A stretch of 62,557 nt of DNA from an uncultured bacterium (GTDB lineage: Bacteria > Chlamydiota > Chlamydiia > Chlamydiales > SM23-39). The DNA is taken from assembly GCA_965370365.1 (NCBI GenBank), contig CBDUSP010000001.1, forward strand, positions 1 to 62,557. Direction: 5' to 3'. The position numbers and the translations under genes were made by a program. The notes beneath the pieces were generated by a model, which was not told the origin of the DNA, did no database searches, and saw only the letters and a program-made list of their open reading frames with translations. Below, one piece after another: positions 8,263 through 26,291 of the stretch (positions are counted from its first letter, which is position 1; each line of letters starts with the position of its first letter).

Positions 8263-8426
8263 GACATCTCAGAATAAAGGAGAGAAACCTTCCTATATGA
8301 GATTGTTTTTTGTCCTTGCGAGCGATTCTCTAAGGGAGCACTAAACAACTCAGACGTTGTGAAAATTTGACTTCATTCAATCATAACGACCATAATTACC
8401 CCCTTGCCAACCCCTAGGAGTTTATT

Positions 8427-9684: not shown

Positions 9685-9826
9685 ACAAAAATCTGCTTGG
9701 AGTATCCTTCCCTACGAGGGGTCGGTTTTTGGGGCACTACACGTCTTGTTCGACAGGACGGATTTTCTCGTTTCGAACAAGTCCAAAAGTGTGGTAAATC
9801 TTTCGAGCGGTTGCGCTTGGCCTTGA
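9611..9826 (+). pseudogene. truncated duplicate of the SET-domain gene 5' end fused to unrelated sequence
   Basis: MMKYRLPRIAFNPLLNKLVSREERKQ matches MMKYRLPRVAFDPLLNKLVSREERKQ at 26218, then diverges. No SET domain follows. Confidence 0.5.
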
Positions 9827-9898
9827 TGGCACTCGATAAAACTTCTCCGTCTTGTGATCTTTTAAAATAATCGCTTGCGTTCGCCAGTATTGCGGACG

Positions 9899-10420
9899 TT
9901 ATTTTGATAAAGAATTGATTATATAGAAAGAAGATAAAGTGATCGCATCCACAATTTCTCCACGAAGAGCCATTTTTCTTATTTCTTCCTTGTTAAACCA
10001 TTTCGTTTTTAATTCTCCCTCCCCAATAGTTTGTATGTTCACGGAGTTAAATAAGACTAAATGACATTTTGTTGTGCTCCAATCAGCAGCTTCACAGATT
10101 TCGCCAATCATTCTCCCCTCTTCTGAGGAAAAAGCATTTGACTCTTCTAGTAGCTCACGGGAAGCTGCTTCTGTTACTGATTCGTTTGGTTCTATAGCCC
10201 CTTGAGGAAGCTCCCAGCTAAACAAATTGCAAGCAAATCGATGTTGGTGTACTAAAAGAACTTCTTCATGGGCATTTTCAGCATAAATGACCACACTATT
10301 ACTCCTTTGAAAAACCAAGAAAGGTTCAGCTAAAAGTTCATTTTTTTTGACAGGAACAGACCAGACTATTGAGTGGGAATTTGAGACGACTTTTTCTGGT
10401 TTCCCGCTTACTTTCCACAT
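9899..10420 (-). CDS. NUDIX hydrolase
   Basis: Nudix box GAIEPNESVTEAASRELLEESN (GX5EX7REUXEEXGU). Confidence 0.85.
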   Translation of the reverse strand: MWKVSGKPEKVVSNSHSIVWSVPVKKNELLAEPFLVFQRSNSVVIYAENAHEEVLLVHQHRFACNLFSWELPQGAIEPNESVTEAASRELLEESNAFSSEEGRMIGEICEAADWSTTKCHLVLFNSVNIQTIGEGELKTKWFNKEEIRKMALRGEIVDAITLSSFYIINSLSK

Positions 10421-11091
10421 AAAATAGAGGCCTCCTGAAGCTCTTTTAACCCTTGGGGGGATCCTATTTCCCAGGATCGTTCTTGAATATTCAGTCCGAT
10501 TAGCAAGTCATTTTTGATCAATTCTTGAAAAAAGGCTTCTTCTTGGGGAAAATATCCGAATTGCTCAATTAGCTGTTTTGGAAGAATCCAAAAACCAATA
10601 TCCACTTTATCCCCTTGGAATGATCGTTTTTTAGAATATGTAATTCTTCCTGTATCCAATAGCTTGACATTTCCTTTTTGACCTGGCAAATGTGTAGCAG
10701 AAGCAAGAAACATGACCCCTTTTTCTCTTGGTTGTTCATTAACCCATGTTTCTAGGAGATCTAAAAATGGGATACGTGGAAGGACATCACCTAGAAGAAC
10801 GGCCACTACGTCATCCAAATGCGAAAGCGCGTTATGGAGGCTTCCGATTACTCCTAATGGTCGGTTTTCAATGGTAAAGGAAACCGTTTTTAGATGAGAT
10901 TTTTCTAGGCAGGAAAGAATCTCATCACTCTTATATCCCAAACAGAGATGGACCAAGCTTGCTTTTCCTAGCCATTTCATTTGAAGCTTGATAAAGGAAT
11001 CATTTTGGATGGGAGCAAGCGATTTAGGGGCATTCCCCAATATCGAGGCCATTCGTGTTCCAAATCCTCCAGCAATAATCACAGCTTGCAT
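10408..11091 (-). CDS. hddC: sugar-1-phosphate nucleotidyltransferase, D-glycero-D-manno-heptose-1-phosphate guanylyltransferase-like
   Basis: MQAVIIAGGFGTRM...PKSLAPI signature at the N-terminus when started at ATG 11091. The track start at 11190 would overlap the transaldolase gene by 86 nt. Sits in the gmhA/hddA/gmhB context. Confidence 0.75.
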   Translation of the reverse strand: MQAVIIAGGFGTRMASILGNAPKSLAPIQNDSFIKLQMKWLGKASLVHLCLGYKSDEILSCLEKSHLKTVSFTIENRPLGVIGSLHNALSHLDDVVAVLLGDVLPRIPFLDLLETWVNEQPREKGVMFLASATHLPGQKGNVKLLDTGRITYSKKRSFQGDKVDIGFWILPKQLIEQFGYFPQEEAFFQELIKNDLLIGLNIQERSWEIGSPQGLKELQEASILCGK

Positions 11092-11104
11092 AGAACGTCT
11101 CTTT

Positions 11105-11785
11105 TCAACAAAGGTGTTTTGCAAAATCAAGAAAATGTCTGCCATCTTCAGCCAATTGCTGAACTGTCGCTCGGCTGTATCTATGATCAATACACTTACA
11201 CATTATTAGTGGCGGAATTGTTATAATGTGCGCTCCTGCAAGAGCCGCTTGCTGAACATCAACAAGATTTCGAACACTTGCAGCAATAATTTCGGATTTA
11301 AAGCCCCAAGTATCAAGCCATTGTTTTGTCATTTGCACAACCTTTGGCCCGTCATTTCCTTCGTCATTAATTCTTCCAACAAAAAGGCTAATATAGCTAG
11401 CTCCTGCTTTAGCTGCAAACATTGCTTGATTTAGGGACAAGCAGGCAGTGCAATTGACTTTGATTCCACTTTCTTCCAGCATCTTCACAGTCTCCAAACA
11501 GGGATTCCCCGCCTCGTCAATCACAGTGATTTTAACGACAATGTTTTTTGCCCAACTTGCAAAAAGTTTGCCTTGATAGAGCATTTCTTCATGCTCTGTA
11601 CTGCAGACTTCTACGCTTAATGGTAAAGGGTCGATGATATCAGCAATCTCTCTTATAATCCGTTCAATATCACTATGACCTTCTCTTCGAAGAATTGTTG
11701 GATTTGTTGTGACGCCATCGATCACTCCGGATGAAAGCCATTTTTGAATTTCATCTTTGTTACAAGTATCTAAAAAAATTTTCAT
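11105..11785 (-). CDS. transaldolase / fructose-6-phosphate aldolase family protein (short type)
   Basis: MKIFLDTCNKDEIQKW...GVIDGVTTNPTIL and VKIT...; ~220-aa TalC/Fsa size class. Confidence 0.85.
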   Translation of the reverse strand: MKIFLDTCNKDEIQKWLSSGVIDGVTTNPTILRREGHSDIERIIREIADIIDPLPLSVEVCSTEHEEMLYQGKLFASWAKNIVVKITVIDEAGNPCLETVKMLEESGIKVNCTACLSLNQAMFAAKAGASYISLFVGRINDEGNDGPKVVQMTKQWLDTWGFKSEIIAASVRNLVDVQQAALAGAHIITIPPLIMCKCIDHRYSRATVQQLAEDGRHFLDFAKHLC

Positions 11786-12405
11786 GTTCTCACCTCCATG
11801 GAAAGAATAATATTTGCAGCTTCTAAAAGATTAGCAGCAATGAAATCAGGATCAAGGTCCTTGATTTTCATCACTTGGCAAATATCGCATTTTTTTTTAC
11901 CAATCCAAACGGTCTGACATCCAGCCGACTTACCTGCCTCAATATCTACGAGACCATCGCCGATCATGATAGAACGAACGAGATCAATCTGAAGTTCCTC
12001 TGAGGCCTGAAGTAATAAGCCGGGGGATGGTTTACGGCAATTACAGAAAATACGATATCGGAGATCTTTTGCTTCTGGATGATGCAGGCAATAGTACACT
12101 TTAGATATGCGCGCTCCCTCCTTTGATAATTCTTGGAGTATGTAGGTTGTGATTGCTTCTAACTCCTCTGGCTTCATTTTTTTCTTAGCAATTCCTGGCT
12201 GGTTTGAAATGATTGCTACTAAAAATCCTGCGCTGTTTAACAGTTTAATTGCGTCAGCGACTCCAGGTAATATAGAAACTTGACTAATATTTAAAGGAGA
12301 ATCGATTAGGCCATGATTTTCATCATAATGCAGCGCATTGATCACACCGTCTCGATCTAAGAAAACAGCTCTGTTTTTCATTTTATTGTTTTGATTTTGC
12401 AACAC
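11782..12405 (-). CDS. gmhB: D-glycero-D-manno-heptose 1,7-bisphosphate phosphatase (HAD-IIIA)
   Basis: AVFLDRDGVIN, ISNQPGIAK, CNCRKPSPGLL and MIGDGLVDIEAG. An alternative ATG at 12381 removes the overlap with gmhA. Confidence 0.85.
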   Translation of the reverse strand: MLQNQNNKMKNRAVFLDRDGVINALHYDENHGLIDSPLNISQVSILPGVADAIKLLNSAGFLVAIISNQPGIAKKKMKPEELEAITTYILQELSKEGARISKVYYCLHHPEAKDLRYRIFCNCRKPSPGLLLQASEELQIDLVRSIMIGDGLVDIEAGKSAGCQTVWIGKKKCDICQVMKIKDLDPDFIAANLLEAANIILSMEVRT

Positions 12406-12991
12406 TTTCCCATTTAGTTATTTGCTGATGCAGTTTGGGGTGTGAGATTAAAAGATGCAAAATTGCAACCTGGAATGTCTCCGCATGCGGCGTTATTCTA
12501 TTTAGATTTATTGTGGGAATAAGAACACAGGCATCAGCAACTTTTTTTGTATAGCCGCCATCTCTTCCCACAATCCCTGCAATTTTGCCCCCAATTTTTT
12601 TTGTATAAGCCAAAGCTCTTACTAGATTTGGGCTGATATTCATTTCGATACTCCCTCCACCGACCGAGAGAACAAAAACTAGATCAGAGCGATTCAAATG
12701 ACTCTCTTTTAACCAATTAACAAAAATGGAATCCCAACCATTATCATTCGCTTGTGCTGTCAGTTCTGAAATATTATCTGAAGGAGAATAGGCCTCGACT
12801 CCTACTACTTTGCGAAAATCACAAACTGCATGAGATGCATTTGCAGCACTGCCTCCGACCCCCAAAAAAAAGATCCTTCCCCTCGTCTCTCTTGCGGATA
12901 TTATGAGATCAACTACCTGCTCAATCGACTCCACGGTGAGCTTGTCGATAATCTGTTTCATTTCTAAAAGATACTGAATTTCATATTTCAT
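12383..12991 (-). CDS. gmhA: SIS-domain sedoheptulose-7-phosphate isomerase-like protein
   Basis: RIFFLGVGGSAANASHAVCDF is a SIS phosphosugar-binding motif; ~200 aa; flanked by hddA and gmhB. Confidence 0.8.
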   Translation of the reverse strand: MKYEIQYLLEMKQIIDKLTVESIEQVVDLIISARETRGRIFFLGVGGSAANASHAVCDFRKVVGVEAYSPSDNISELTAQANDNGWDSIFVNWLKESHLNRSDLVFVLSVGGGSIEMNISPNLVRALAYTKKIGGKIAGIVGRDGGYTKKVADACVLIPTINLNRITPHAETFQVAILHLLISHPKLHQQITKWESVAKSKQ

Positions 12992-13971
12992 GCGTATGAG
13001 TTGGTTAAAATTGTTGTTCCTTGGAAATCAAAATTGACTTGTAGTTCAGTGAGTCCTTTCAGTAAAAGAGCTTGCCTCACTTTTTCTTTACCTTTATCAC
13101 AGTAAAACATGAAAAACCCCCCACTTCCAGCGCCCATTATCTTTCCTCCTGAAGCACCACTTTCTATCGCTAAGTCATACCAGGAATCAATGATTTTGCT
13201 AGATACTTTTGGCGAAAGCGCTTTCTTGCAGAGCCAATGATCATGCAGCAGCTTGCCAAATTCAGAAAGTTTCCCTTTTTCCAGAACATCTTTAGTTTGA
13301 TAACCAATTTCTTTAATTTGGTGTAAACTATCGATTACCCCTTGATTTCCATTTTTAGTTGCATTGTACTGTTCAACGAGAACAGCTGCGCTTTTCCTCT
13401 CTATCTGTGTATGAAAAAACAACAATCTTCCCAATAAGTCAGATAGAATTTTCGGAGAAATCTTGGGAGCTGTCGCGGTCACAGATCCATTCAACATGAT
13501 TTCGAGGCATTGGATTCCTCCTAGAGCAGTGATGTACTGATCTTGTTTTCCAATTGGTTGGCGAAGAATATCTATTTCGATCGTGCTTGCGTACTCCGCT
13601 AAATCTGATTGGGAGCATTTTTCTGACTTCAGCGCGTATAGAGCATTGAGCAAGCCTACAGTAAATGCGCCAGACCCTCCTAGACCGGACCCTGAAGGAA
13701 TGTTGCATATAGAAGAGATTTCAATCCCACAGTGAATCCCCACGAATTTTAAGATTTCCCTAACTAGCTCATTCTTTAATTTCCCAACTTGATCTACGCA
13801 TTCACTACCAACTTTGATCTTTTGATCTAATTCTCGCTTCTTCACAGTAACATAAATGTATTTGTTAATAGCTGCGGTCATCACGAAGCCACCAAACCTT
13901 GAAGAATACGAAGTGATATCAGTTCCTCCTCCGCCTAAAGGAATACGCAGTGGAGTTCGTACAACAATCAT
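12988..13971 (-). CDS. hddA: GHMP kinase, D-glycero-D-manno-heptose-7-phosphate kinase-like
   Basis: RTPLRIPLGGGGTDITSY N-terminus typical of HddA. GHMP motif II PSGSGLGGSGA. Motif III GAGSGGF. Confidence 0.8.
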   Translation of the reverse strand: MIVVRTPLRIPLGGGGTDITSYSSRFGGFVMTAAINKYIYVTVKKRELDQKIKVGSECVDQVGKLKNELVREILKFVGIHCGIEISSICNIPSGSGLGGSGAFTVGLLNALYALKSEKCSQSDLAEYASTIEIDILRQPIGKQDQYITALGGIQCLEIMLNGSVTATAPKISPKILSDLLGRLLFFHTQIERKSAAVLVEQYNATKNGNQGVIDSLHQIKEIGYQTKDVLEKGKLSEFGKLLHDHWLCKKALSPKVSSKIIDSWYDLAIESGASGGKIMGAGSGGFFMFYCDKGKEKVRQALLLKGLTELQVNFDFQGTTILTNSYA

Positions 13972-15014
13972 AGTCTTCCCTCTAAACTAAGTGCCGATTC
14001 CAGACTCTTCAGATTGATTGTTTTCTCTTGTAGAGATGCTTGATAGACGGCATTGACAGCTTCCATCGCAGCAAGACCATCTTCGCCATTGCCCATGGGT
14101 TGACGATTTTCCTTAATGGAACTTGTAAACTCGGCCCATTCTAAATACCACGATTTATCTTCGCCTAAAAATTCAGTGATTTCCTCTGAAAATGGTTTAA
14201 AGAAATCACGCTTTCCATAAATAAGTTTTTCAGTTCCATAACTCCCCCCCAATCCTTCTACAGAGAGATATCCATCTGTCCCAAAGACCTCAAAAGAAAA
14301 ACGATTTCTCCACTGAGTCAGGCTGGCATGGACAGTGCAAACCACGTTATTTTCCGTTTGCAAGATTGCATATCCATTATCCTCAAGAGGTTGGGTCTTC
14401 CAATATCCGTTCTGGGTAACCCCTGTTACTTTGGAAAAGTCTCCAAAAAACCAACGAAATAAGTCGATGGAATGAATTCCTTGCTCCATTAAGTGCCCCC
14501 CAGCTGCAATAGAGGGATCACTTCTCCATTCTTTCATACAATCAGGGCGTCCACAAATTCCATAACAAGCTCGAGCAAAAATTGGGTTGCCTATTTTCTT
14601 GTCATCAAACATTTTCTTTGCTTTAGAGATTGCTGGATGATGACGATGGTTAAAACCACATTTAAGAATTCGTTTGTATTCTTTTGCTGTTCGAATCATC
14701 TCACAGCCTTCTTCGTATGTCTTTGCTAGAGGTTTTTCACAAAGTACATGCTTACCCGTCTTGAGTGCCTCAATTGCAATCAAAGCATGTAAGTGAGGAG
14801 GAGTGCAGATGATAATTGCATTTAAATCTTTGCGCAAAACGACCTCTTCCCACCCTTTGGAAGATTCACACCCGAACTCGTCAGCAAGCTTCATTGATTC
14901 TTCCAATTTAGCAGAAGAAATAACGACTAAACGAGATTCTTTATCGTTATTAAAAACAGATGCTCTCCTGCGCCCTTGCAGACCTGCTCCGATAATACCC
15001 ACCCTTAAAACCAT
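13968..15014 (-). CDS. Gfo/Idh/MocA family NAD(P)-dependent oxidoreductase
   Basis: LRVGIIGAGLQG Rossmann N-terminus and the EKPLA motif (VLCEKPLAKT). Confidence 0.85.
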   Translation of the reverse strand: MVLRVGIIGAGLQGRRRASVFNNDKESRLVVISSAKLEESMKLADEFGCESSKGWEEVVLRKDLNAIIICTPPHLHALIAIEALKTGKHVLCEKPLAKTYEEGCEMIRTAKEYKRILKCGFNHRHHPAISKAKKMFDDKKIGNPIFARACYGICGRPDCMKEWRSDPSIAAGGHLMEQGIHSIDLFRWFFGDFSKVTGVTQNGYWKTQPLEDNGYAILQTENNVVCTVHASLTQWRNRFSFEVFGTDGYLSVEGLGGSYGTEKLIYGKRDFFKPFSEEITEFLGEDKSWYLEWAEFTSSIKENRQPMGNGEDGLAAMEAVNAVYQASLQEKTINLKSLESALSLEGRL

Positions 15015-15015
15015 T

Positions 15016-16320
15016 TTATCTCCCCATACCCGCCATAGAAATGTATTTAAAGCCCAATGTTTTTAGGTCCTTTTGGGAAAGAAAACTCTTTGGATCAATA
15101 AGAATTGGAGACCTCATTAAAGTCTGAAGCTTCTGGAAATTCAGTTGTAAAAACTCTGGCCATTCAGTCATTAGAATGATTGCATCACAATCGGTTACAC
15201 ATTTTTCTATAGCAGAAGAAATCTCAAAATTTACCCTTCCCTCTAGCTCGGAAAGATTTGCTTTTGGATCATATGCTTTCACTTGGCAACCCGCCTCTTC
15301 TAAACATTTGATCAGTTCAAGGGATTGAGAACGTCGCAGAGTGCTGGTTTGAGACGTATAGGTGAGCCCCAAAATGCCTATAGTACTTTGCTTTAGGTTG
15401 AGAAGATCTCTTAAACTCTCCACAAGCAGCTGGCATTGCACCGAGTTAACTTTTAAAACAGAATCTATTACGTCAGTGGCTTTTCTAGTCTGTTTTCCGA
15501 GTTGCTGTAGAGTCTTTAGATCTCTTGCTAGGGTTCCTCCAGAAAAGCCCATCCCAGGCTTAATACAAGCCTTTTGGCCAATTCTTGGATCTAGTTGCAT
15601 AGCTTTTGCGACCTCCTCACAATTCACACCTAGGCCTCTTCCAATATGAGCAAGTTCATTTGCTAAACTAATTGAGGTAGCAAGGAAGGCGTTAATCGAA
15701 TGCTTAACCATTTCAGCCGTGCGGATGGAGACTCTCATTTTAGAAGAACAAATAGAACTTAAAAGAGAATCAACCCTATCCCCAGTTTTTTTTGAATCTG
15801 CTCCAATCACTAACATATCAGGATGTTGGAAACGTTCAATAGCAAGGCCAAGCCGCAAATTTTCTGGAATGTAGGCGATTCCTCCTTCAGCCTTAGGATT
15901 ATGCTGAATAACTAACTGCCATAACATCTCGCACGTCCCCACAGGAACTTGACTGCTTATCATTAAAACAGTTTCTTTCTGTAAAAAAGGAGCGACAGTT
16001 GCAACAGCATCCGTAATGGGTGATAAATCTAGTTCATCATTTTCATTCACAGGAGTATCGTAAGTAATCCAAACGAATAATGCTTTTGAAACTGCAGAGG
16101 ACACGTTGTTGGAAAACTTTAGTCTATTAGAACTAAGCCCACTACTTATCAATTCCTCAAGTCCTGGTTCAAATAGTGGAGGGATGTTTTTTTGAAGGTT
16201 GGCAATTCGAACTTGATTCTCGTCTATTCCAACTACTTGATACCCCCAATCAGCAAGACAGGCGGCTGAAACCACCCCTAAATGCCACAAGCCCACAATA
16301 CATACTTTATCACTTCTCAT
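15016..16320 (-). CDS. nucleotide-sugar 6-dehydrogenase (UDP-glucose/GDP-mannose dehydrogenase family)
   Basis: KVCIVGLWHLGVVSAACLA N-terminus, central PGMGFSGGTLARD (catalytic-Cys region pattern GxGxGGxC partly altered), and the C-terminal UDPG_MGDP_dh domain pattern. Confidence 0.8.
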   Translation of the reverse strand: MRSDKVCIVGLWHLGVVSAACLADWGYQVVGIDENQVRIANLQKNIPPLFEPGLEELISSGLSSNRLKFSNNVSSAVSKALFVWITYDTPVNENDELDLSPITDAVATVAPFLQKETVLMISSQVPVGTCEMLWQLVIQHNPKAEGGIAYIPENLRLGLAIERFQHPDMLVIGADSKKTGDRVDSLLSSICSSKMRVSIRTAEMVKHSINAFLATSISLANELAHIGRGLGVNCEEVAKAMQLDPRIGQKACIKPGMGFSGGTLARDLKTLQQLGKQTRKATDVIDSVLKVNSVQCQLLVESLRDLLNLKQSTIGILGLTYTSQTSTLRRSQSLELIKCLEEAGCQVKAYDPKANLSELEGRVNFEISSAIEKCVTDCDAIILMTEWPEFLQLNFQKLQTLMRSPILIDPKSFLSQKDLKTLGFKYISMAGMGR

Positions 16321-17318
16321 CTGACAGAAATTCCTGATTTGTTTTTACCAAAGTTCGGTACTAGATATTGCACCATGCGTTGGGAAGCAATCTCTATGGC
16401 TTCTTCGGAGCTCTTCTTTGCACTCCATCCGAGGGTCTTCATTCTCGAAATATCGAGTTCGACGTAAGGCTGATCCCCAAGGAAGGCACGTTTCCCTCCA
16501 GAAAACTTCAAACTCACGTTTTTTAATCCCAATGCATTGATTACAGCTTTGGCTATGGCGACTACGTTTGTATTTCCATGCACGCCTAAATTCAAAACAA
16601 CAGAAGGGGTTGATTCATTGAGTTGGATATTAAAGTACGCGTGGAGCATTCCTTCGATGCACTCCTCCACAAGAAAATAGTTTTTAGCCTGTTTCCCATC
16701 TCCTAAAATTTCAAGCTGGGAAGAGTCTTTTTCCAATTTGCGGATGAAATCATGGATTGCCCCCCGACTCATCCGGCTACTTACGACATTTCCAAAACGA
16801 AATACCCATCCCCTTAAATTAAAAAGATGGCAATAAGCGCTGATAAACGCTTCAGCAGCAGCTTTCCCCGCCCCGTAGAGAGAAATTGGAAGTAAAGGAC
16901 CTGCTGTTTCTGGTGTAGGCAACTTTTTTATTTCTCCGTAAACAGCTCCTGTGGAAGCAAAAAGCAAGTCGCGAACGCCTGTAAGACGCATCGCCTCCAA
17001 GACGTTGTAAGTAGCGATCACATTACTCTGTAAGTCTAGCGATGTATTGCAAGATCCTCCTGGAATATCCGCGTTTGCACCCAAATGCCAGATAAAATCA
17101 TGACCCGGCATTGCTTTTACAAGAGCATCTAAATGGAGTAAATCATCATAAATAAATTGAAACTTTGGATTTGATAAATAGGGAGCAAGTCGCTCCTTCT
17201 TCCCGTTTGAAAGATTGTCAAAAACCGTGACGCTCCAGCCAATGTTCATACAGAAATCGACAACATGGCTTCCTATAAAGCCTGCTCCCCCAGTAACAAA
17301 TACTTTTTTAGGAGGCAT
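16317..17318 (-). CDS. NAD-dependent epimerase/dehydratase (extended SDR)
   Basis: KVFVTGGAGFIGSHVV and YGAGKAAAE (YxxxK). The start is moved to ATG 17318 (MPPKKVFVTGG); the track N-terminus overlaps the methyltransferase gene. Confidence 0.85.
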   Translation of the reverse strand: MPPKKVFVTGGAGFIGSHVVDFCMNIGWSVTVFDNLSNGKKERLAPYLSNPKFQFIYDDLLHLDALVKAMPGHDFIWHLGANADIPGGSCNTSLDLQSNVIATYNVLEAMRLTGVRDLLFASTGAVYGEIKKLPTPETAGPLLPISLYGAGKAAAEAFISAYCHLFNLRGWVFRFGNVVSSRMSRGAIHDFIRKLEKDSSQLEILGDGKQAKNYFLVEECIEGMLHAYFNIQLNESTPSVVLNLGVHGNTNVVAIAKAVINALGLKNVSLKFSGGKRAFLGDQPYVELDISRMKTLGWSAKKSSEEAIEIASQRMVQYLVPNFGKNKSGISVR

Positions 17319-18916: not shown

Positions 18917-19881
18917 ACAAGTTGTCCAGTCCTCTGAGTTGCGTTACTGTTTTTAAAGGGAACTTCAAAGAGCCAGCCTGGAGGCACTTTCTGGTTTTTA
19001 TCGCAGATTTCCAGATAACGATTGCGACACATTGTCGTAAGGGGGCCTGGTACCCCAGTATTTATTTTATAACCGTCAATTTCTATCACTGGCTGAATTT
19101 CAGATAATGTTCCACAGAAAAGAATTTCGTCAGCAGTGTAAAGTTCCGTTCGAGAGATTTCTCGTTCGACGACTTCTATACCGAATTCTATTCTTAAGAG
19201 ATAAATGGTATTCTCTCTTGAAATGCTTTGTAGAATGTCCGCATAAAGAGGAGGCGTGAAAGCAACCCCCTTATAAAAAATGAAAATTGCCGCACCAGAG
19301 CCTTCGGCTACAGTCCCTCGGTGATTTAACAAAATCACATCATCCAATCCTCTTTGCATTCCCTCAATACGAGGAAGCCGCAGGCTTAAATAAGAAGCCC
19401 CTGTTTTAATACGGGGAGAAAAAGAAAGATCAGTCGACCGTTGCCATGAACTTACGCAGCATCGGATACCAGAGAAAATAGAAGGAGAGTGACTCGATGG
19501 AAATGCAACAATATATGCCCCCATTTTGGTGTTTGCAGGATCAAAGCCATATCTTCCGGATTCAATGTAGATAGTTGGTCGTATATATATATGTTCTTGA
19601 TAATCAAGCTTTTGAATGAGTTCGATAATCCCCTGGATGATTTCTTTCATACTTAAAACCTCAGGAAATTTTAATAGCTGTGCGGACTGAAACAGCCTTT
19701 CCAAATGCTTTTCTAAGGATAGTAATGAATAACATTTTTTTTTAGGATCCCAAAAGCCTCGGATTCCATCAAATACGTTTGCCCCTCGAACGGCTAATTC
19801 TGACCAAATATGGACTTTCGCGTCTTGCCAAGGAATCACTGTCCCATTAAACCAGAGAAAATCAGGAATTTTTTCAGTCAT
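18913..19881 (-). CDS. PLP fold-type IV aminotransferase (branched-chain/D-amino-acid aminotransferase family)
   Basis: WFNGTVIPWQDAKVHIWSELAVRGANVFDGIRGF, ILLNHRGTVAEGSGAAIF, EREISRTELYTADEILFCGT. Confidence 0.8.
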   Translation of the reverse strand: MTEKIPDFLWFNGTVIPWQDAKVHIWSELAVRGANVFDGIRGFWDPKKKCYSLLSLEKHLERLFQSAQLLKFPEVLSMKEIIQGIIELIQKLDYQEHIYIRPTIYIESGRYGFDPANTKMGAYIVAFPSSHSPSIFSGIRCCVSSWQRSTDLSFSPRIKTGASYLSLRLPRIEGMQRGLDDVILLNHRGTVAEGSGAAIFIFYKGVAFTPPLYADILQSISRENTIYLLRIEFGIEVVEREISRTELYTADEILFCGTLSEIQPVIEIDGYKINTGVPGPLTTMCRNRYLEICDKNQKVPPGWLFEVPFKNSNATQRTGQLV

Positions 19882-21089
19882 GATAAAACCCCCACAGCCT
19901 TTGACTTTAAATCTATACAGTCATAATAGGCTTCGAGGGTTTCTCTTACGGCTCTTTGATTGTCAAAATGTGAACGAACCAACTGAAGCCCATTATTGGA
20001 TAAGTTGTCATAAAGAATAGGATTTTCGATCAACTGCACGATTGATTTCGCTAAGGCCATCGGACTACCAGAAGGAACAAGCAATCCATCCTGACCATGA
20101 GTAATGATTTCTTGAATCCCCGGAATATCGCTTGCTACAACCGGCTTTTTACAAGCAAGGCCCTCAATTACTGCTAACCCTAATCCTTCAGCAAAGCTAG
20201 GCTGAACAACTAAGTCAGCAGCAGCATAAAGCCCCGGCATCGCATCAAAGGAAAAGGTTTCGTTAATCGTTACGGAGTTAGTCAGATTGAGAGTTTTGAT
20301 TTTAGCATAAAGCAAGTCTGCATAAGCTCTCGATGCAGAGTTACAGCTTCCTACAATCAAGAGTTTTGCCTTAGGTTGAGTGTTTTGAACAAGCGGCATT
20401 GCACAAATCAATTCAAGCAGTCCTTTACGTTTTTTTAACCGGGCGGAGCAAACGATTAGGAAATCATCACTATTAACTCTCAAAGAATGACGCAAAACAG
20501 ATCCATCCTGTGGGAAAAATTTTTCAAGATTTATCCCATGATAGATTAGTTTTATCCTTTGACGTTCTATGCCAAATGACAAAGCTTTCCCTAAATAAAA
20601 TTGACTTCCTGCAATAAATAAATCGATAGATAAACGGGAAAAAACTAACTCGCATTTTCCAAAGCCAAAGGCTTCTTTTTCGGGTTCTTGTTCATGAAAT
20701 GTACAGACAATCGGGATATTTAGAGTAGAAGCGATCATCGAACCCAGAACTGCCGTATCTAAGCTGTTCGCATGCAGTAGATGAATCTCACGACTTTGTA
20801 GATGAACTTGTATTTCCCCTAAAAGAGAGAAGTACATTTGTTCCCATCGGACTTTTGTAGGATCGTCCAGATTAGACACATAATTTGCTATCCGAATCAC
20901 TTCCACACCAAATAAATGCTCTATTTTTGGAGAGTCTACACCTACTCCATCAGTGATTACCAACACATTGTGTCCCTCTCGGACAAGGCCTTCCGCCACA
21001 TTTCTAGCGTAGGTTTCGGCCCCTCCAATCTTAGGGTGATATGTTGGACTTAAGATGCAAATATTCAGTTTATTTTTAACAACTCCCAA
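19878..21089 (-). CDS. GT4-family (GT-B) glycosyltransferase
   Basis: N-terminal ILSPTYHPKIGGAETYARN and C-terminal EGLGLAVIEGLACKKPVVASD (EX7E region). Confidence 0.85.
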   Translation of the reverse strand: MGVVKNKLNICILSPTYHPKIGGAETYARNVAEGLVREGHNVLVITDGVGVDSPKIEHLFGVEVIRIANYVSNLDDPTKVRWEQMYFSLLGEIQVHLQSREIHLLHANSLDTAVLGSMIASTLNIPIVCTFHEQEPEKEAFGFGKCELVFSRLSIDLFIAGSQFYLGKALSFGIERQRIKLIYHGINLEKFFPQDGSVLRHSLRVNSDDFLIVCSARLKKRKGLLELICAMPLVQNTQPKAKLLIVGSCNSASRAYADLLYAKIKTLNLTNSVTINETFSFDAMPGLYAAADLVVQPSFAEGLGLAVIEGLACKKPVVASDIPGIQEIITHGQDGLLVPSGSPMALAKSIVQLIENPILYDNLSNNGLQLVRSHFDNQRAVRETLEAYYDCIDLKSKAVGVLS

Positions 21090-22056
21090 TTAGGTCTCCA
21101 ATAATAACTTTTTGGTTGCTAACATGAGATCTATTCAAAAGTACGGAAGATTGGATGTGTACGTTATCTCCAATAACAGAGTTTTCCCCTATCACCACAG
21201 GCCCTATAATTTTTCCATCTTTTCCAATTTTCGCTCCCCTGCCAATGAGAAGAGGGCCTGTCAATCTCGCCGTAGGATGAATCAAACAGTTTTCTCCAAT
21301 GTAAATACCTTCCACAGTCTTCTTTTCTGGAATGTGAAGTTTTACTTTTCCTGAGAGAGCGCATAGATTCGTTTCAAGAAGTGTTGCTACAGTTCCAATA
21401 TCAGACCAGTACGAAGAAATTTTATAACAATAGACATCTTCTCCCGCAGCAGTCATGCGAGGAATTAAATGTTGGCCATAATCAAAAAGTTGATTTCTGG
21501 GAAATGTTGCAATCAATTTCGGGTCAAGACAATAAATTCCACAGCTAACCAAGCCCTTAGCCTCCTTTGATAAAGGAGGCTTTTCTGTGAATGTAACCAC
21601 TCGATTGTATCTATCAATCTTAGCCACACCATAACGCCCCGGGTCCGAAACCTCTTGCATAACCACTGAAAGAGCAGCTTTGCTTTGTCGATGAGCAACA
21701 ATAAATTGATGCAAATCAAAGTCATGAATTCCATCTCCTGACAAGACGAGAACTTCATTCTCGGATTTCAAGGCATCTTCAAAAGCTAATAAAGCCCCCG
21801 CTGGGCCAGTTAAAACGGACTCAATATGCCAGGTGATGCGACCATCAAAACGACAGCTGTCCCTAAAATAATTTATGATTTGTTTCGATTCGTGAAAAAG
21901 ATTAATGAAAACTTCATCAATCCCTGCTCTTTTCACAGATCTCAAGATATGCTCAATAATTGGCTGATTTAAAACGGGTGCCAGGGGCTTTGGAATATTA
22001 CGAGTAAAAGGATGAAGCCGTTTCCCTATGCCCGCAGCTAAAATAACACATTTCAC
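21076..22056 (-). CDS. sugar-phosphate nucleotidyltransferase with C-terminal left-handed beta-helix
   Basis: MKCVILAAGIGKRLHPFTRNIPKPLAPV and hexapeptide repeats IGRGAKIGKDGKIIGPVVIGENSVIGDNVHI. Confidence 0.8.
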   Translation of the reverse strand: MKCVILAAGIGKRLHPFTRNIPKPLAPVLNQPIIEHILRSVKRAGIDEVFINLFHESKQIINYFRDSCRFDGRITWHIESVLTGPAGALLAFEDALKSENEVLVLSGDGIHDFDLHQFIVAHRQSKAALSVVMQEVSDPGRYGVAKIDRYNRVVTFTEKPPLSKEAKGLVSCGIYCLDPKLIATFPRNQLFDYGQHLIPRMTAAGEDVYCYKISSYWSDIGTVATLLETNLCALSGKVKLHIPEKKTVEGIYIGENCLIHPTARLTGPLLIGRGAKIGKDGKIIGPVVIGENSVIGDNVHIQSSVLLNRSHVSNQKVIIGDLIGSC

Positions 22057-23165
22057 TTTACAGTTAACCCCAAAGTATTCAGAGGAACATACGATATAAT
22101 GTCATTTATTTCCTCCTGATTTAAGCCAATCGATTCAAGATTTCCTATTTGACCTCTAATTGATGAGGTCCCAGCCGCAACAACCCCTTTTTTCTGGTAC
22201 CACAAAGTACTGTGCTCTTTCTTTTGTAGAGACTGTCCTCCCAGTTGATTTACATCAATGCGATCAGTCATTCCGATGATCACTTTTGATCCCAGTAGCC
22301 TAACGACATGTTTGCAAATTTCTAAATCGACATGTTCGTTATCAAAATTGAGGCAAATGGTTAAAAATCCTTCGTGGGCTGCACGCATAAGCACAGCAGG
22401 GACCTCTCCAAGGTTTTTAGCAAGGTTATCCATTGTCCATTTTTCTGGTCTTTGTTGGGCCATCTCAGCTTTGCGATTCAAACGAGCCTCCGGTGTTCTC
22501 CAAGCATGACGAAACTGAAGAGGCATATCATTGAATAAATGATCTGTAATTATTCGATGAGAAGGTTTTGGACCAAAGTTTTTTGCAACATCAATGACTT
22601 CCTGAGCTGCTTTTGCACTAGCTTCTGGCGATGCTTTATGAAAATGGCCTAATGCAGGTCTAATCCCTGCTTCTAAAAGCGTGTTTACAATCCAAAGAAG
22701 ACTTGGATGCTCTGGAGTCATCCTTTCCATCAAATAGGACCCCTTTAGCAGCGCATCAGGGGAAAGTACTGTGTACAGGAGACCCAGATTTCCGCATCGA
22801 GCAAGCTTTTCCCATTCTTTTTTTGTAGGAGCCCATGACCCTTGTTCTGGGGTCCCCCCAAAGCTTGCAAGAAGAGGGCCCTCGAGAGAAATTCCTAGAA
22901 TATGCGATAATTGGCCATTCGATCGAGCCTTTGCATATTTTTGCATCAAGACACAGAAAGCATCTAATTTGCTGAATGCAAGAAAAATAGATGGGACGCA
23001 GTACACATGTTCCTCTCTCGCCAACTCATTTACTAATTCAAGATTTAAATTATCGATATCACTGAAGTCGTAGTTTCCAATCCCGTGACAGTGAAACTCG
23101 ACAGGAAGGGCCTGCGCTATTGTTTTTCTTAGAGGTCTAGACTCACTGGCAAAACTCATGAACAT
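22053..23165 (-). CDS. amidohydrolase-superfamily protein, N-acetylglucosamine-6-phosphate deacetylase (NagA)-like
   Basis: FHCHGIGNYDF (HxH-like metal site), GISLEGPLLA (compare GxHLEGPF) and ITDHLFNDM (compare THLFNAM). Confidence 0.6.
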   Translation of the reverse strand: MFMSFASESRPLRKTIAQALPVEFHCHGIGNYDFSDIDNLNLELVNELAREEHVYCVPSIFLAFSKLDAFCVLMQKYAKARSNGQLSHILGISLEGPLLASFGGTPEQGSWAPTKKEWEKLARCGNLGLLYTVLSPDALLKGSYLMERMTPEHPSLLWIVNTLLEAGIRPALGHFHKASPEASAKAAQEVIDVAKNFGPKPSHRIITDHLFNDMPLQFRHAWRTPEARLNRKAEMAQQRPEKWTMDNLAKNLGEVPAVLMRAAHEGFLTICLNFDNEHVDLEICKHVVRLLGSKVIIGMTDRIDVNQLGGQSLQKKEHSTLWYQKKGVVAAGTSSIRGQIGNLESIGLNQEEINDIISYVPLNTLGLTVK

Positions 23166-23237
23166 CCTTTAATTTAGATGAAAGAAGAACAGTTGGGATC
23201 GATTGTGTTGGTAAAAGTTTTTTAAGTCAAATTTTTT

Positions 23238-25049
23238 TTAGACCATTAATTTGTCCTGAGGAGACTTTGGAGTTTTGGGCAAGAAACCTTTGGATTGCAT
23301 ATGCCACATCTGTGCATAATGACCTTGATTTGCTAGCAAGTTAGCATGAGAACCTTCTTCGATAATTTCCCCATCGCTAAAAACAAGCAACCTGTCCATC
23401 TTTCCAAGGGTTGATAAACGATGGGCAATCACAATAGTTGTACGAATTGCCTCTAGAGATTCAAAGCTCTCTTGAACGTACGTTTCAGTTACTGAGTCGA
23501 GAGCTGAAGTAGCCTCATCTAAGATGAGAATGGGTGTATTTGCTAAGATCGCGCGAGCAATTGCAATCCTTTGCCGTTCTCCTCCAGAGAGCTTAGTTCC
23601 CCGTTCTCCGACAAGAGTATCATATTTATTGGGGAATTTGTTAATAAACTCATCGCAATGTGCTAAACGGGAGGCCCTCAATATTTCTTCCTCAGAAGCA
23701 GTAGATTTCCCGCATCGAATATTTTCTCTTAACGAGCGATGAAATAAAATGGGGTCTTGGGGAATTAAAGCAATCTGTTCTCGAAGAGACTCCAGCGTAA
23801 TTTTAGATATGTCCTGACCGTCAATGAGAATCCGTCCTTTAGATGGAGGGAAAAAGCGAAGAATGAGATTCACAAAAGTTGACTTTCCCGCACCAGAATA
23901 CCCTACCAGCCCTACTTTTTCTCCCTTGCGAATTTGAATACATTTGTTTCGAAATAGTTTTCTCTCTCCGTATTGAAAAGTGACATTTTCAAAAACTATT
24001 TCCCCAGAATCTATGCGCAAGTGCAGAGCTCCAGGGAGGTCAAGAATATCTTTCGGATCTTGCATAAGAATTAAAGCTTGCCTTGCCGTTCCTATTGATT
24101 GAAACAGTACTGGAATTGCTGCGCCAGCAATCCAAAGAAATGTAATGATATTCCAAGTAGTGTTAAAAACCTGCGCTACTTCTCCCGTTGTAATTAAACC
24201 GCGCGTCCAGGAGTAAAGCATAAATCCATTAATTCCTAACCCGCCACCAAAAAAAATCCCCAGTCCTAGGAAAAACCGAATCATTTCGACATATTTCTTG
24301 GATTGTTGGTTTTTCAAAGTTTCTGCTTCCTGGAACCTCCCGATATAGGCTCGTTCATTTAGAAAACGGTACAATAAATTCACGGCAAAATTATTCGTAA
24401 GACTATCAACAATCTTCCCAAGTAGAGTACTCCTTGCTTCACTATGAATATTCTCATATTTATCACAATTTTTAGTGAATGACATACAAATAGCAAAATG
24501 AACAAAAATCCATGCAAATAGAATTACCCCGAAAAGAGGGTTTATTCGAGACAGGAAAAAAACGGCCAAAATGCAAGCGACAAGTGCAGGAATAAACGCA
24601 GTCAACAGCTGTTGAAAGATTTGCGATACTTGCGTTGTCATATCCGTAATTTTATTTGCCAAGCTTCCCGAAAACCTTTCGTTAAAATATTTAGGAGAAT
24701 GCTGCTGCACGTGATCAAACATTGCCATACGAATGTCCGCCTCAAGCTTAGGCATAGCACGCGCAAGTAAAAGCCCCTGCAAGCGAAAAGCGGCCTCTAC
24801 TCCAACCCACAGACAAAGTCCTGCCCCTACAATAATCCTCAATGCAGGCCAAACAGCTTCTCTTTGAGAATCGTACTGCGTAAGGGTGTCAATCAGAATG
24901 CGAAGCAGATAAGGCCATAAGGTTGTGTCGAGCGACCAAACAAAAGGGACAAGAAAGATAAGAAGAAATGTTATTTTTTGTCGGCAAATAAATTGCCAAA
25001 TAAACGTAAAGAGACTGAGGGAAATTTCTGAAGGGGCTATTTTTGACAT
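23238..25049 (-). CDS. ABC exporter, fused permease/ATPase (MsbA/type I exporter-like)
   Basis: Six predicted N-terminal TM helices, Walker A GYSGAGKST, signature LSGGERQRIAIARA, Walker B ILILDEATSALD. Confidence 0.9.
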   Translation of the reverse strand: MSKIAPSEISLSLFTFIWQFICRQKITFLLIFLVPFVWSLDTTLWPYLLRILIDTLTQYDSQREAVWPALRIIVGAGLCLWVGVEAAFRLQGLLLARAMPKLEADIRMAMFDHVQQHSPKYFNERFSGSLANKITDMTTQVSQIFQQLLTAFIPALVACILAVFFLSRINPLFGVILFAWIFVHFAICMSFTKNCDKYENIHSEARSTLLGKIVDSLTNNFAVNLLYRFLNERAYIGRFQEAETLKNQQSKKYVEMIRFFLGLGIFFGGGLGINGFMLYSWTRGLITTGEVAQVFNTTWNIITFLWIAGAAIPVLFQSIGTARQALILMQDPKDILDLPGALHLRIDSGEIVFENVTFQYGERKLFRNKCIQIRKGEKVGLVGYSGAGKSTFVNLILRFFPPSKGRILIDGQDISKITLESLREQIALIPQDPILFHRSLRENIRCGKSTASEEEILRASRLAHCDEFINKFPNKYDTLVGERGTKLSGGERQRIAIARAILANTPILILDEATSALDSVTETYVQESFESLEAIRTTIVIAHRLSTLGKMDRLLVFSDGEIIEEGSHANLLANQGHYAQMWHMQSKGFLPKTPKSPQDKLMV

Positions 25050-25446
25050 GATTTATGAAATACCTTTTTCGGAATATACTCCCTCCGATTGTTCGCGACT
25101 CACCGAATATGGAGATATTAGGCCCGTATGTACAATTGTGTCACTTATCTGAAGGTCTTTTTTACTGTCGAAAGAGAAGAGGTATTTAACAACAACAGTT
25201 CTGATTTTCACTAAGGAATCTGAGAGTAAAGGACAGCAAAATACCTCAAGACAATCGTACCCATCCGTTGATTTTTGATTCGTCGCAGTATAGTGAGCGC
25301 AACCCAAACCACCAGAAAACATAAAAACCCCTAAGTTCCACAACGAAAAATATTTTCTTCCTGTTCCCTTTTTTGGTCAATAAAAATTTTGCCTGTGTAA
25401 GAGCAAAGTTAAAATGTCCTCTTCAAAAGAGAGGAGAGGAGAGGCG

Positions 25447-26194
25447 ATGGAAACGGAGCTAAAGATGACAGTAAGAGAGGCAGATAGATACGCTCTCATG
25501 AGGGGATAGGGTCTCAAAAAAACAACTATAAATAGAAGCGTCCCAAGCGATGGGGATTTCATACAGACAGGCACGTCGGTTATGGTATTGTTACCAAAGA
25601 GAAGGCCCCAAGGGACTGGTCCCCAAAAACAAGGGTAAGCCAAGCAATAATCAACTTTCTCAAGGAGTCAAAGAAAAGGCTATAGCATTGGTTAGAACGA
25701 ACTACGCTAACTATGGACCCACCCTTGTAGCAGAGAAGTTAGATGATTACTTTGCTACCCTCAAGGGGTATCTTTTGAGTCACGGAAGGCCGAAAGCCTT
25801 CTATAGCGACAAACATAGTATTTTCCGGGTGAATATGAAGGGTTGTGAAGGGAAAAAGACAACTTTTCATAGGGCCATAAAAGAGCTCGATATCGAGCTA
25901 ATCTGTGCACATAGTCCCCAAGCCAAAGGAAGGGTCGAAAGGACGAATGGGGTTCTCCAAGATCGTCTGATTAAAGAACTGAGAGAGAAAAAGATCGGCA
26001 CAATGGAAGAAAGGAATGCCTCCCTAGAGAAATTTCGACAAAGGTATAATAAGCAATTTGGGAAAGAGGCAGCAGACCCCAAAGACGGGCACCGGAAACT
26101 TCTTGAGAGTCATAACCTAGATAAAATTCTATTGGAGAAAAATAAAAGAATGATAGCAAAAGATCTCTCTAAAGATTGGCTTTATCCCTTTTAG
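25447..26194 (+). pseudogene. decayed DDE (rve-type) transposase, IS1202/ISNCY- or IS481-like
   Basis: The N-terminal part METELKMTVREADRYALMRG ends at a stop, and there is an in-frame TAA at 25529. The HTH region is GISYRQARRLWYCYQREGPKGLV. Only the distal catalytic region survives (FYSDKHSIF ... SPQAKGRVERTNG); the first catalytic Asp region is missing. Confidence 0.7.
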
Positions 26195-26291
26195 GAGAAG
26201 TGCTATAACCCAAACTCATGATGAAATATAGACTTCCCCGCGTTGCTTTCGATCCCTTGTTAAACAAGCTGGTATCTCGTGAAGAGCGCAA
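26161..26291 (+). repeat. right copy of the ~131-bp direct repeat (native 5' end of the SET-domain gene)
   Basis: Matches 9554..9684. Continues into the intact SET-domain CDS. Confidence 0.8.

Follow-up and report, generated by a model that had tools for sequence, protein, structure and literature searches.

A sixteen-gene operon on a contig of plausible chlamydial origin, with a proposed lincosamide-like logic for a higher-carbon amino sugar

Contig CBDUSP010000001.1 from an uncultured bacterium was analysed over its full 62,557 bp (the window), and all coordinates refer to its forward strand. We examined a run of 16 minus-strand open reading frames (ORFs) that extends from 25049 down to 9899 with no plus-strand gene between them (Table 1). 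Families were assigned by Pfam and NCBIfam profile searches, with NCBIfam equivalog cutoffs serving as membership thresholds. Using the best-supported start codons, adjacent genes overlap by 4-14 nt at 11-12 of the 15 junctions. The only sizeable gap, of 72 nt, lies between the ABC exporter and NagA-like genes; the dehydrogenase and Gfo genes are 1 nt apart, the transaldolase and small nucleotidyltransferase genes are separated by 13 nt when the latter begins at the ATG at 11091, and the start at the SIS/GmhB-like junction is uncertain. Each of the 16 ORFs is intact, translational coupling is preserved, and readable catalytic motifs are present: PxGSGLGxS in the GHMP kinase, the NUDIX box, YxxxK in the short-chain dehydrogenase/reductase (SDR), GGxGTR in the NTP-transferase, DxDG plus the CxH...CxC zinc loop in the HAD protein, and the transaldolase catalytic set D6/E60/K86/F132/R135. 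The initial annotation, which had drawn the locus as a single tightly coupled biosynthetic unit, agrees well with this layout, and profile searches supported its family names for 15 of the 16 genes; no Pfam or NCBIfam model matched the protein encoded at 22053-23165. Its range of 9685-26160 captured the 16-gene run but also took in an ISNCY transposase at 25550-26194. Upstream of the operon, Rfam matched neither a riboswitch nor a leader RNA, and promoter and terminator scans performed no better than on shuffled sequence.

Table 1. Features of the window, with the operon in order of transcription. Lengths and closest homologues of the celesticetin (Ccb) proteins are from the celesticetin table in a PLoS One supplement.
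Feature	Coordinates	Strand	Length	Domains or models	Celesticetin counterpart
MsbA/HlyB-type ABC exporter, fused membrane and ATPase domains; first gene	23238..25049	-	603 aa	ABC_membrane + ABC_tran	
NagA-like metal amidohydrolase	22053..23165	-	368-370 aa	no Pfam model; predicted fold and conserved residues	
GMPPB/RmlA-long-type sugar-1-phosphate nucleotidylyltransferase, short left-handed beta-helix	21076..22056	-	326 aa	NTP_transferase + Hexapep + LbH_EIF2B	
GT4 retaining glycosyltransferase	19878..21089	-	403 aa	Glyco_transf_4 + Glycos_transf_1	
Fold-type IV (BCAT-like) aminotransferase	18913..19881	-	322 aa	Aminotran_4	CcbS, 386 aa, DegT type (different fold), glutamine-scyllo-inositol-transaminase-like
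HAD-IA phosphatase	18224..18916	-	230 aa	Hydrolase/HAD_2; passes generic HAD-IA models only	
FkbM-family methyltransferase	17308..18237	-	307-309 aa	Methyltransf_21 + TIGR01444	
Extended SDR, GalE/epimerase type; probable start ATG 17318	16317..17375	-	333 aa from ATG 17318	Epimerase/GDP_Man_Dehyd	CcbM, 325 aa, UDP-glucose-4-epimerase-like
UDP-glucose/GDP-mannose-dehydrogenase-family protein without catalytic Cys	15016..16320	-	434 aa	three UDPG_MGDP_dh domains	CcbL, 436 aa, nucleotide-sugar dehydrogenase
Gfo/Idh/MocA NAD(P) oxidoreductase	13968..15014	-	348 aa	GFO_IDH_MocA N + C domains	CcbZ, dehydrogenase domain ~330-340 aa
GHMP anomeric sugar-phosphate kinase, HddA/LmbP-like	12988..13971	-	327 aa	GHMP_kinases_N + C	CcbP, 323 aa, galactokinase-like kinase
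Divergent SIS ketose/aldose-phosphate isomerase, GmhA/LmbN-like	12383..12991	-	202 aa	SIS_2	CcbN, 202 aa, isomerase
HAD-IIIA GmhB/LmbK-like sugar-bisphosphate phosphatase; probable start ATG 12381	11782..12405	-	~200 aa	TIGR01656 + TIGR01662 pass	CcbK, 185 aa, heptose-bisphosphate-phosphatase-like
Short (TalC/TM0295-type) transaldolase	11105..11785	-	226 aa	TAL_FSA	CcbR, 222 aa, transaldolase
Small HddC/LmbO-like sugar-1-phosphate nucleotidylyltransferase; probable start ATG 11091	10408..11190	-	227 aa from ATG 11091	NTP_transferase/NTP_transf_3; GGFGTR motif	CcbO, 232 aa, nucleotidyltransferase
NUDIX hydrolase; last operon gene	9899..10420	-	173 aa	NUDIX domain	
Degenerate ISNCY-family transposase remnant, outside operon	25550..26194	+		NF033594, 225 bits (cutoff 250)	
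SET-domain protein	26218-26913	+	231 aa	weak match to Legionella effector AnkI/LegAS4 model	
365-aa ORF	843-1940	+	365 aa	ThrRS model, N-terminal 229/565 positions, 56 bits	
2OG-Fe(II) oxygenase	4821-5909	-		DIOX_N + 2OG-FeII_Oxy	
PpaX-like HAD phosphatase	6018-6683	+			
GT2 fused to TPR repeats	38406-39590	-		weak SunS peptide S-glycosyltransferase match	
MerR/TipAS antibiotic-sensing regulator	49352-50128	-			
APH-family phosphotransferase	51574-52470	+			
tmRNA	55283-55651	-		Rfam 118 bits, full-length model	
IleRS, MupA/MupB-like (eukaryote-type)	55921-58926	+	1001 aa		
Signal peptidase I (LepB), unusually long	60570-62531	-	653 aa		

Five contiguous genes encode the transaldolase, SIS isomerase, GHMP kinase, HAD-IIIA phosphatase and small nucleotidyltransferase, a set previously read as making up the GDP-heptose route. 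The canonical route consists of four enzymes, GmhA, HddA, GmhB and HddC, and has no transaldolase. Moreover, all four candidates score below equivalog cutoffs: the GHMP kinase reaches 168 bits against HddA model NF049969 (cutoff 600), the SIS protein 56 bits against gmhA model TIGR00441 (cutoff 209), the phosphatase 144 bits against GmhB model PRK08942 (cutoff 178) and the nucleotidyltransferase 64 bits against the HddC model (cutoff 300). For these two reasons the set does not correspond to the established route. A second subtype of the same heptose-like enzymes, found in sister clusters, likewise falls below the cutoffs. The best Protein Data Bank (PDB) matches of the kinase are the heptose kinases 3k85, 4n3o and 4usk (139-152 bits), and its relatives at about 50% identity number in the thousands, with homologues of 50-56% being widespread. 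The SIS protein matched only GmhA entries in the PDB (~40 bits, with Glu65 replaced by Asp), suggestive of only a distant GmhA relative, and the phosphatase reads DRDG, SNQ and CxH...CxC. The transaldolase scores 154 bits against PDB 1vpx and has a fully canonical active site, in which Glu60 and Phe132, together with Lys86, rule out an FSA-type aldolase. Its sequence does not discriminate sedoheptulose 7-phosphate from octulose 8-phosphate. All related loci of sufficient length also encode a transaldolase, a constancy that argues for a non-standard ketose phosphate without proving one.

These scores bear on an alternative in which a 6-dehydrogenase oxidizes a heptose that is then aminated and methylated to afford a small exported glycoside. 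We consider this rather unlikely. The heptose 7-phosphate kinase and GmhA structures nearest to the kinase and isomerase, the near-cutoff phosphatase score and the canonical transaldolase site all lean towards a heptose. However, both enzyme subtypes remain below the equivalog cutoffs, and canonical heptose loci lack the transaldolase that every locus with this module encodes. The operon shares four activation families with the GDP-heptose route, but departs from it in these scores, in its dedicated transaldolase and in having no polysaccharide assembly machinery.

The tailoring genes also bear on the heptose alternative. Alignment to PDB 4a7p, and also to 3gg2, placed Thr263 of the dehydrogenase homologue (motif GFSGGTLARD) opposite the nucleophilic Cys of GGSCFPKD, so that the protein lacks the catalytic Cys of the GGxCxxKD motif that characterizes four-electron 6-dehydrogenases. 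The same substitution holds in every orthologue examined, and all eight orthologues from FkbM-type loci carry GGTL(A/Q)RD. A full-database search with the window protein returned 3,245 representatives at E<1e-30; Thr occupies the Cys position in 137 of the 150 best (50%-identity representatives). The earlier label of nucleotide-sugar 6-dehydrogenase was therefore abandoned in favor of a putative two-electron oxidoreductase. Because Thr replaces the catalytic Cys, uronic acid formation is not expected; heptouronic and hexuronic acids were accordingly rejected as products, and the four-electron oxidation on which the heptose alternative depends is precluded.

A comparable gene arrangement occurs in the WbpA/WbpB/WbpE route to 3-amino uronic acid sugars, in which dehydrogenase-family and Gfo genes are likewise adjacent and an aminotransferase acts afterwards. 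WbpA-type enzymes, however, are true four-electron dehydrogenases with a catalytic Cys, and the window substrate would be supplied through the transaldolase, SIS and GHMP enzymes instead of UDP-GlcNAc. The heptose pathways of Campylobacter, Yersinia and Burkholderia tailor their sugars through GDP-mannose-dehydratase-type SDRs, unlike the Cys-less dehydrogenase homologue and Gfo enzyme found here. To our knowledge, the combination of an SDR, a UDP-glucose-dehydrogenase-like protein and a Gfo enzyme is part of no described heptose pathway.

We compiled 14 genomic contexts of the Cys-less dehydrogenase, comprising the window and loci L005, L006, L008, L009, L015, L018, L020, L021 and L023-L027, of which L023-L025 are three database representatives and L026 and L027 the best plasmid matches. 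All 14 carry a Gfo enzyme, SDR, transaldolase, SIS protein, GHMP kinase, phosphatase and nucleotidyltransferase. In each, the Gfo gene is adjacent or next but one to that of the dehydrogenase, and on this positional evidence the Gfo enzyme appears to be its obligatory partner. The Gfo protein itself scores 137 bits against iolG and 125 bits against the archaeal UDP-GlcNAc 3-dehydrogenase model, both below cutoff. The SDR gene adjoins the dehydrogenase gene in 12 of 13 other loci examined; in the exception, Lawsonia (L026), the nearest epimerase-type SDR is ~11 kb away. The window SDR contains STGAVYG and YGAGK but no dehydratase D-E pair, and assignment as a 4,6-dehydratase was rejected on that basis. 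A search of 72,556 plasmids found the SIS subtype in no records other than those of Lawsonia and Rhizobium, which hold the whole module.

The gene following Gfo varies among these loci: a fold-IV aminotransferase directly follows in eight, a DegT aminotransferase in L023 and a ketoreductase-type SDR in L024-L026. Such variety is the pattern expected if the dehydrogenase and Gfo enzymes yield a keto-sugar, which would then be either aminated or reduced. The window aminotransferase scores 253 bits against branched-chain aminotransferase (BCAT) models (cutoff 279) and retains K159, Y164, E193, Y95, R97 and R40, with Y31 replaced by Arg. Retention of Y95 and R97 does not support an (R)-amine transaminase by motif. 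By positional equivalence, we infer that the BCAT-like enzyme is the sugar aminotransferase of the pathway. L023 (JGI Ga0673072_0000057) encodes the SDR, dehydrogenase and Gfo proteins closest to those of the window (53-62% identity). At 6949-8840 of this locus, a SurE-type phosphatase takes the place of the GmhB-like one, and the cluster also contains an inserted gene that resembles those of class-II aminoacyl-tRNA synthetases (tRNA-synt_2b, weak).

The same families, at near-identical lengths, build the octose of the lincosamide antibiotics (Table 1). The transaldolase LmbR reportedly converts ribose 5-phosphate to octulose 8-phosphate, which the GmhA-like LmbN isomerizes; LmbP, LmbK and LmbO then afford GDP-octose, and LmbM, LmbL, LmbZ and LmbS convert it to GDP-lincosamide. 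The related celesticetin pathway also O-methylates its sugar. Eight of these nine families (LmbR/N/P/K/O/M/L/Z) recur in the window. The five-gene transaldolase, SIS, GHMP, HAD-IIIA and nucleotidyltransferase set is complete and contiguous, with a cluster-encoded transaldolase feeding a GmhA-like isomerase in both systems, and the tailoring trio of GalE-like SDR, dehydrogenase homologue and Gfo-type enzyme matches at the family level only. An aminotransferase follows the module in each case, but the DegT/DnrJ type of LmbS is replaced by a fold-type IV enzyme in the window, whereas L023 has a DegT protein in this position. Genes specific to lincosamide assembly (LmbT, C, D, E, V, F, G, the LmbN carrier-protein domain and the propylproline genes) are missing from the operon. 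Neither the 16 ORFs nor the scanned contig ORFs encode the lincosamide synthetase and thiol-exchange proteins (LmbC/D/N-CP, T, V, E, F, G), or adenylation, carrier-protein, mycothiol-amidase or DinB-type proteins. Conversely, the second nucleotidyltransferase, GT4, NagA-like deacetylase, NUDIX and ABC exporter genes are additions over the lincosamide set. The module matches LmbR/N/P/K/O/M/L/Z by family and length, so the sugar may be C8 rather than C7. Overall, the transaldolase, Cys-less dehydrogenase and Gfo enzyme argue for lincosamide-type octose logic no less strongly than for a heptose; the tailoring trio is known from the octose pathway.

Structure prediction was informative for the one protein outside existing models. 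The AlphaFold2 model of the 22053-23165 product is a complete barrel with a pLDDT of 91.7, and its best 31 Foldseek matches are all NagA or AMDHD2 (E down to 2e-14, TM score ~0.65); the family profile also weakly matches PDB NagA entries. Across ~360 homologue clusters, HxH, E93, H172, D206-H207, D273, H276, D278 and D299 are invariant, and thus the protein combines a NagA-type barrel with the metal and acid-base residue pattern. The earlier call of a NagA-like amidohydrolase was borne out by these matches. On the strength of the predicted fold, the enzyme is probably an N-deacetylase of an amino sugar or amino-sugar phosphate. It shares the fold and HxH/E/H/H/D pattern with NagA, but is only 13-18% identical to NagA structures, lies outside the Pfam and NCBIfam models and belongs to a family found in biosynthetic clusters. 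Because family members occur in such clusters and beside LacI and HAD genes, their substrate probably differs from that of NagA.

Two other members of this family were recorded. One is encoded at 7809-8948 of L004, a Streptomyces xanthii plasmid, in an ATP-grasp/PLP cluster that includes ATP-grasp ligases together with methylaspartate mutase and a diaminobutyrate transaminase. The other, at 10001-11308 of L010 (Bacillus velezensis), stands alone beside LacI, DUF6198 and Cof-type HAD genes. The substrate range of the family is probably broader than one pathway.

The NagA-like gene travels with the GMPPB-like nucleotidyltransferase and GT4 genes in the window, Bacillus thuringiensis and Nocardia takedensis, with the first two adjacent in all three. 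The NagA-like protein is 53% identical to the product of the first B. thuringiensis cassette gene and 48% to that of the first Nocardia gene. The GMPPB-like protein scores 169 bits against Arch_glmU and 162 bits against man1P_GTase, both below cutoff, and may activate a second sugar. As previously stated, the operon has a single glycosyltransferase, the GT4, which is 53% identical to its B. thuringiensis and 42% to its Nocardia counterpart. Its best NCBIfam matches are EpsE, BshA and MshA, all far under cutoff; BshA (100 bits, cutoff 274) and MshA (94 bits, cutoff 462) rank second and fourth. All three clusters also encode a NUDIX protein; its gene is the distal one in the window and B. thuringiensis and directly follows GT4 in Nocardia. 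The window protein is 45% identical to the last B. thuringiensis cassette gene product and, given a NudE score of 41 bits and weak PDB matches to ADP-ribose pyrophosphatases, is probably an NDP-sugar or ADP-ribose-type pyrophosphatase. The combination of a BshA/MshA-like GT4, a HAD phosphatase and an N-deacetylase-like enzyme in one operon resembles the pseudodisaccharide logic of mycothiol, bacillithiol and aminoglycoside biosynthesis. In contrast to these pathways, however, the deacetylase is of the NagA rather than LmbE/PIG-L type, and genes for a cysteine ligase or for inositol or malate supply are missing.

Comparison across genomes placed the operon in a rare family of clusters that spans several phyla. 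In B. thuringiensis (GCA_040337655.1, contig VKIA01000020), 12 of the 16 genes recur with their order preserved and at 45-62% identity, whereas the ABC, HAD-IA, dehydrogenase and Gfo genes are missing. All 15 biosynthetic families occur in one 22-gene cluster of N. takedensis, along with a SARP-like regulator, a major facilitator superfamily (MFS) pump, LuxC/D/E, a luciferase-like oxygenase, a second FkbM protein and a short-chain reductase. The core was also identified in Frankia and in the cyanobacterium Halotia wernerae, as well as in some ten metagenomic contigs. The nearest relative fragment, a 3-kb JGI sequence (L016), preserves the GT4-aminotransferase-HAD-FkbM order at 42-60% identity, with the HAD-IA phosphatase in the same position (42%); the window phosphatase bears only weak similarity to the HADs of Lux-type clusters. 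The FkbM protein is a sharp marker, with ~21 clusters at 191 bits or more among 5.8 billion proteins before a drop to 102 bits, and no FkbM homologue was matched in the plasmid search. The ABC exporter, in contrast, has no counterpart in the related loci examined and was rejected as a conserved cluster member: Nocardia has an MFS transporter and B. thuringiensis none. Its own scores are 340 bits against MsbA_rel/MsbA_lipidA, below their cutoffs, with an operon-like third-position GC content (GC3) of 0.35.

Literature searches on transaldolase with heptose genes, LuxC/LuxE with heptose or glycolipid, and octose with polysaccharide returned nothing relevant, and the proposal of an undescribed pathway thus held in the literature searched. 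The cluster is coherent and real, and constitutes a variation on higher-carbon nucleoside diphosphate (NDP)-sugar pathways rather than a categorically new system.

Taken together, we favor with modest confidence a reading in which the operon, a self-contained and probably acquired cluster, follows lincosamide-like logic to an NDP-activated C8 or C7 sugar that is aminated, methylated and coupled once. The steps proposed here draw on family membership and lincosamide precedent. The transaldolase would act on ribose 5-phosphate to give octulose 8-phosphate, or on erythrose 4-phosphate to give sedoheptulose 7-phosphate, and the SIS isomerase would convert the ketose phosphate to an aldose phosphate. 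Phosphorylation at C1 by the GHMP kinase, removal of the terminal phosphate by the HAD-IIIA phosphatase and transfer by the small nucleotidyltransferase would afford the NDP-sugar. Epimerization by the GalE-like SDR together with the Cys-less dehydrogenase homologue and Gfo enzyme could then lead to a keto, probably deoxy, intermediate, to be aminated by the fold-IV aminotransferase and methylated by the FkbM enzyme. The GMPPB-like nucleotidyltransferase may activate a second, N-acetylated sugar or sugar phosphate, the probable acceptor. The single GT4 would couple this second sugar to the amino sugar, or to an amino-sugar 1-phosphate freed by the NUDIX enzyme, whose nucleotide-sugar hydrolysis could be housekeeping or a pathway step. 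Deacetylation by the NagA-like amidohydrolase and dephosphorylation by the HAD-IA phosphatase might complete the coupled product, which the MsbA-type ABC protein would export or flip. The coupling, deacetylation and dephosphorylation scheme is the least secure portion. As for carbon number, we give an octose about an even chance and a heptose somewhat less, while any other length seems improbable.

Several points weigh against this proposal. The likeness to the Lmb and Ccb enzymes is one of logic, family and length rather than demonstrated orthology, and LmbL itself may or may not share the loss of the Cys. The transaldolase looks like an ordinary short type that could simply supply sedoheptulose 7-phosphate, and the kinase and isomerase find their closest solved structures among heptose enzymes. 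The aminotransferase keeps all of the BCAT carboxylate-binding residues and could be a real branched-chain aminotransferase. Two nucleotidyltransferases face a single glycosyltransferase, leaving the coupling scheme as guesswork, and the exporter is not conserved in related clusters. Finally, polysaccharide loci of Lawsonia and L025 harbor this sugar module alongside Wzy_C, GT2s or an ABC permease.

The last observation also bears on product fate. In a second alternative, which we likewise consider rather unlikely, the GT4 glycosylates a membrane lipid that the MsbA-like ABC protein flips, giving a glycolipid or a decoration of lipopolysaccharide or another surface glycan. The best models of the ABC protein are indeed MsbA or MsbA-related lipid exporters, and the GT4 matches include diacylglycerol and phosphatidylglycerol glycosyltransferases (GlcN_PG_synth, Mgs), but these scores are all far below cutoffs. 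LuxC/LuxE genes are present in most FkbM-type relatives, and the genes for LuxC/LuxD/LuxE fatty-acid reductase, a luciferase-like oxygenase, a second FkbM protein and a short-chain reductase that accompany the amino-sugar module in most sister clusters imply a lipid-bearing product, perhaps an alkyl glycoside or glycolipid; we found no description of such a product in the literature. The window and B. thuringiensis, however, are exactly the Lux-less variants, and the SARP-type regulator and MFS pump of Nocardia are typical of secreted secondary metabolites. In addition, the operon and contig encode no lipid-building enzyme, polyprenyl-phosphate transferase, polymerase or ligase. Scanning ORFs across the 62.6-kb contig identified no Wzx/Wzy, Wzm/Wzt, initiating polyprenyl-phosphate transferase or ligase, extending to the whole contig what had been noted for the operon. 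With one GT4 and no assembly genes, the locus does not resemble those for capsule, O-antigen or S-layer glycans. The earlier suggestion of a small exported glycoside or glycolipid rather than a polysaccharide thus gains from this contig, and loses from the polysaccharide loci that house the module elsewhere. On balance, under the lincosamide-like reading, a secreted glycoside seems slightly more likely than an envelope glycolipid.

The Nocardia cluster is contained in JBSGCU010000004 of GCA_053601975.1, at about 313-334 kb (L012, 10001-21287; L008, 1-16063), and L006, L009, L015 and L018-L020 are also of the Lux type. In L026 (8943-17294 of Lawsonia intracellularis plasmid 3, NC_008014.1), the module forms part of a polysaccharide-type locus; its host is an obligate intracellular pathogen that has been cultured. 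L027 places the module on the Rhizobium jaguaris chromid pRCCGE525c. We know of no sugar product assigned to either module.

Composition sets the operon apart from its surroundings. Operon GC3 is 0.34 compared with 0.40 in the 28 other ORFs (Mann-Whitney p=9e-5), and relative synonymous codon usage of the operon correlates with that of the rest of the contig at 0.83, against 0.91 in a split-half control. Directly upstream of the first operon gene, NF033594 covers the ISNCY remnant in two stretches that span part of the 368-position model. Because of the low GC3 and the adjoining transposase remnant, the operon was probably acquired horizontally, and the remnant probably marks the insertion boundary of the likely island. 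These comparisons with the flanks are in line with the initial view that the locus is unusual for its host. A degenerate transposase and atypical codon usage could also signify a decaying cassette without a current product, and the NagA-like ORF is ~60 aa shorter than most homologues. We judge this to be very improbable: 16 of 16 ORFs are intact with coupling and catalytic motifs kept, the short NagA-like protein is modeled with confidence as a complete barrel, and the family includes further members of similarly short length.

If the module makes an octose, then higher-carbon sugars, now seen as a lincomycin curiosity, would be widespread building blocks of bacterial glycans and natural products, given module carriers that include Lawsonia, Rhizobium, Frankia, Nocardia, Bacillus and cyanobacteria. 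For finding such pathways, the Cys-to-Thr dehydrogenase subfamily offers a simple sequence marker, and the signature of Cys-less dehydrogenase plus Gfo ties together a widespread uncharacterized sugar module. The subfamily also poses the enzymological question of what a UDP-glucose-dehydrogenase fold does once it has lost its nucleophile and is constantly accompanied by a Gfo enzyme. More tentatively, this subfamily and its linked module might mark a widespread unrecognized NDP-octose route to deoxy and amino sugars, of a kind so far known from lincosamide antibiotics alone. In this chlamydia-like genome the route would feed a new exported glycoside of an amino-octose, which might resemble an aminoglycoside or serve as a glycolipid head group. 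If true, an acquired and exported amino-sugar glycoside would represent unexpected host-interaction or competition chemistry for chlamydia-like organisms, and the amino-octose cluster a rare natural-product cluster in an obligately host-associated lineage. Since the B. thuringiensis and N. takedensis clusters reside in cultured strains, the product is directly searchable.

Beyond the operon, the contig encodes dnaN-recF, pheS, a MupA-type IleRS, signal peptidase I, a SET-domain protein, tmRNA and numerous ORFs that match no family. The MupA-type IleRS and long signal peptidase I fit chlamydial genomes, and together with the SET-domain protein they make a chlamydial origin of the contig plausible. 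The SET-domain protein is a candidate eukaryote-like effector of the histone-methyltransferase type, typical of intracellular bacteria. The tmRNA was detected by Rfam but not called by ARAGORN, a discrepancy that may reflect an unusual or permuted architecture. The MerR/TipAS regulator and nearby APH-family phosphotransferase form a possible drug-responsive resistance pair, and the 365-aa ORF could be a free-standing paralogue of the ThrRS N-terminal/editing domain or a truncated gene. The only other glycosyltransferase seen on the contig is the GT2-TPR protein, encoded 13 kb from the operon, and the 2OG-Fe(II) oxygenase and PpaX-like HAD phosphatase genes lie a few kb from its distal end.

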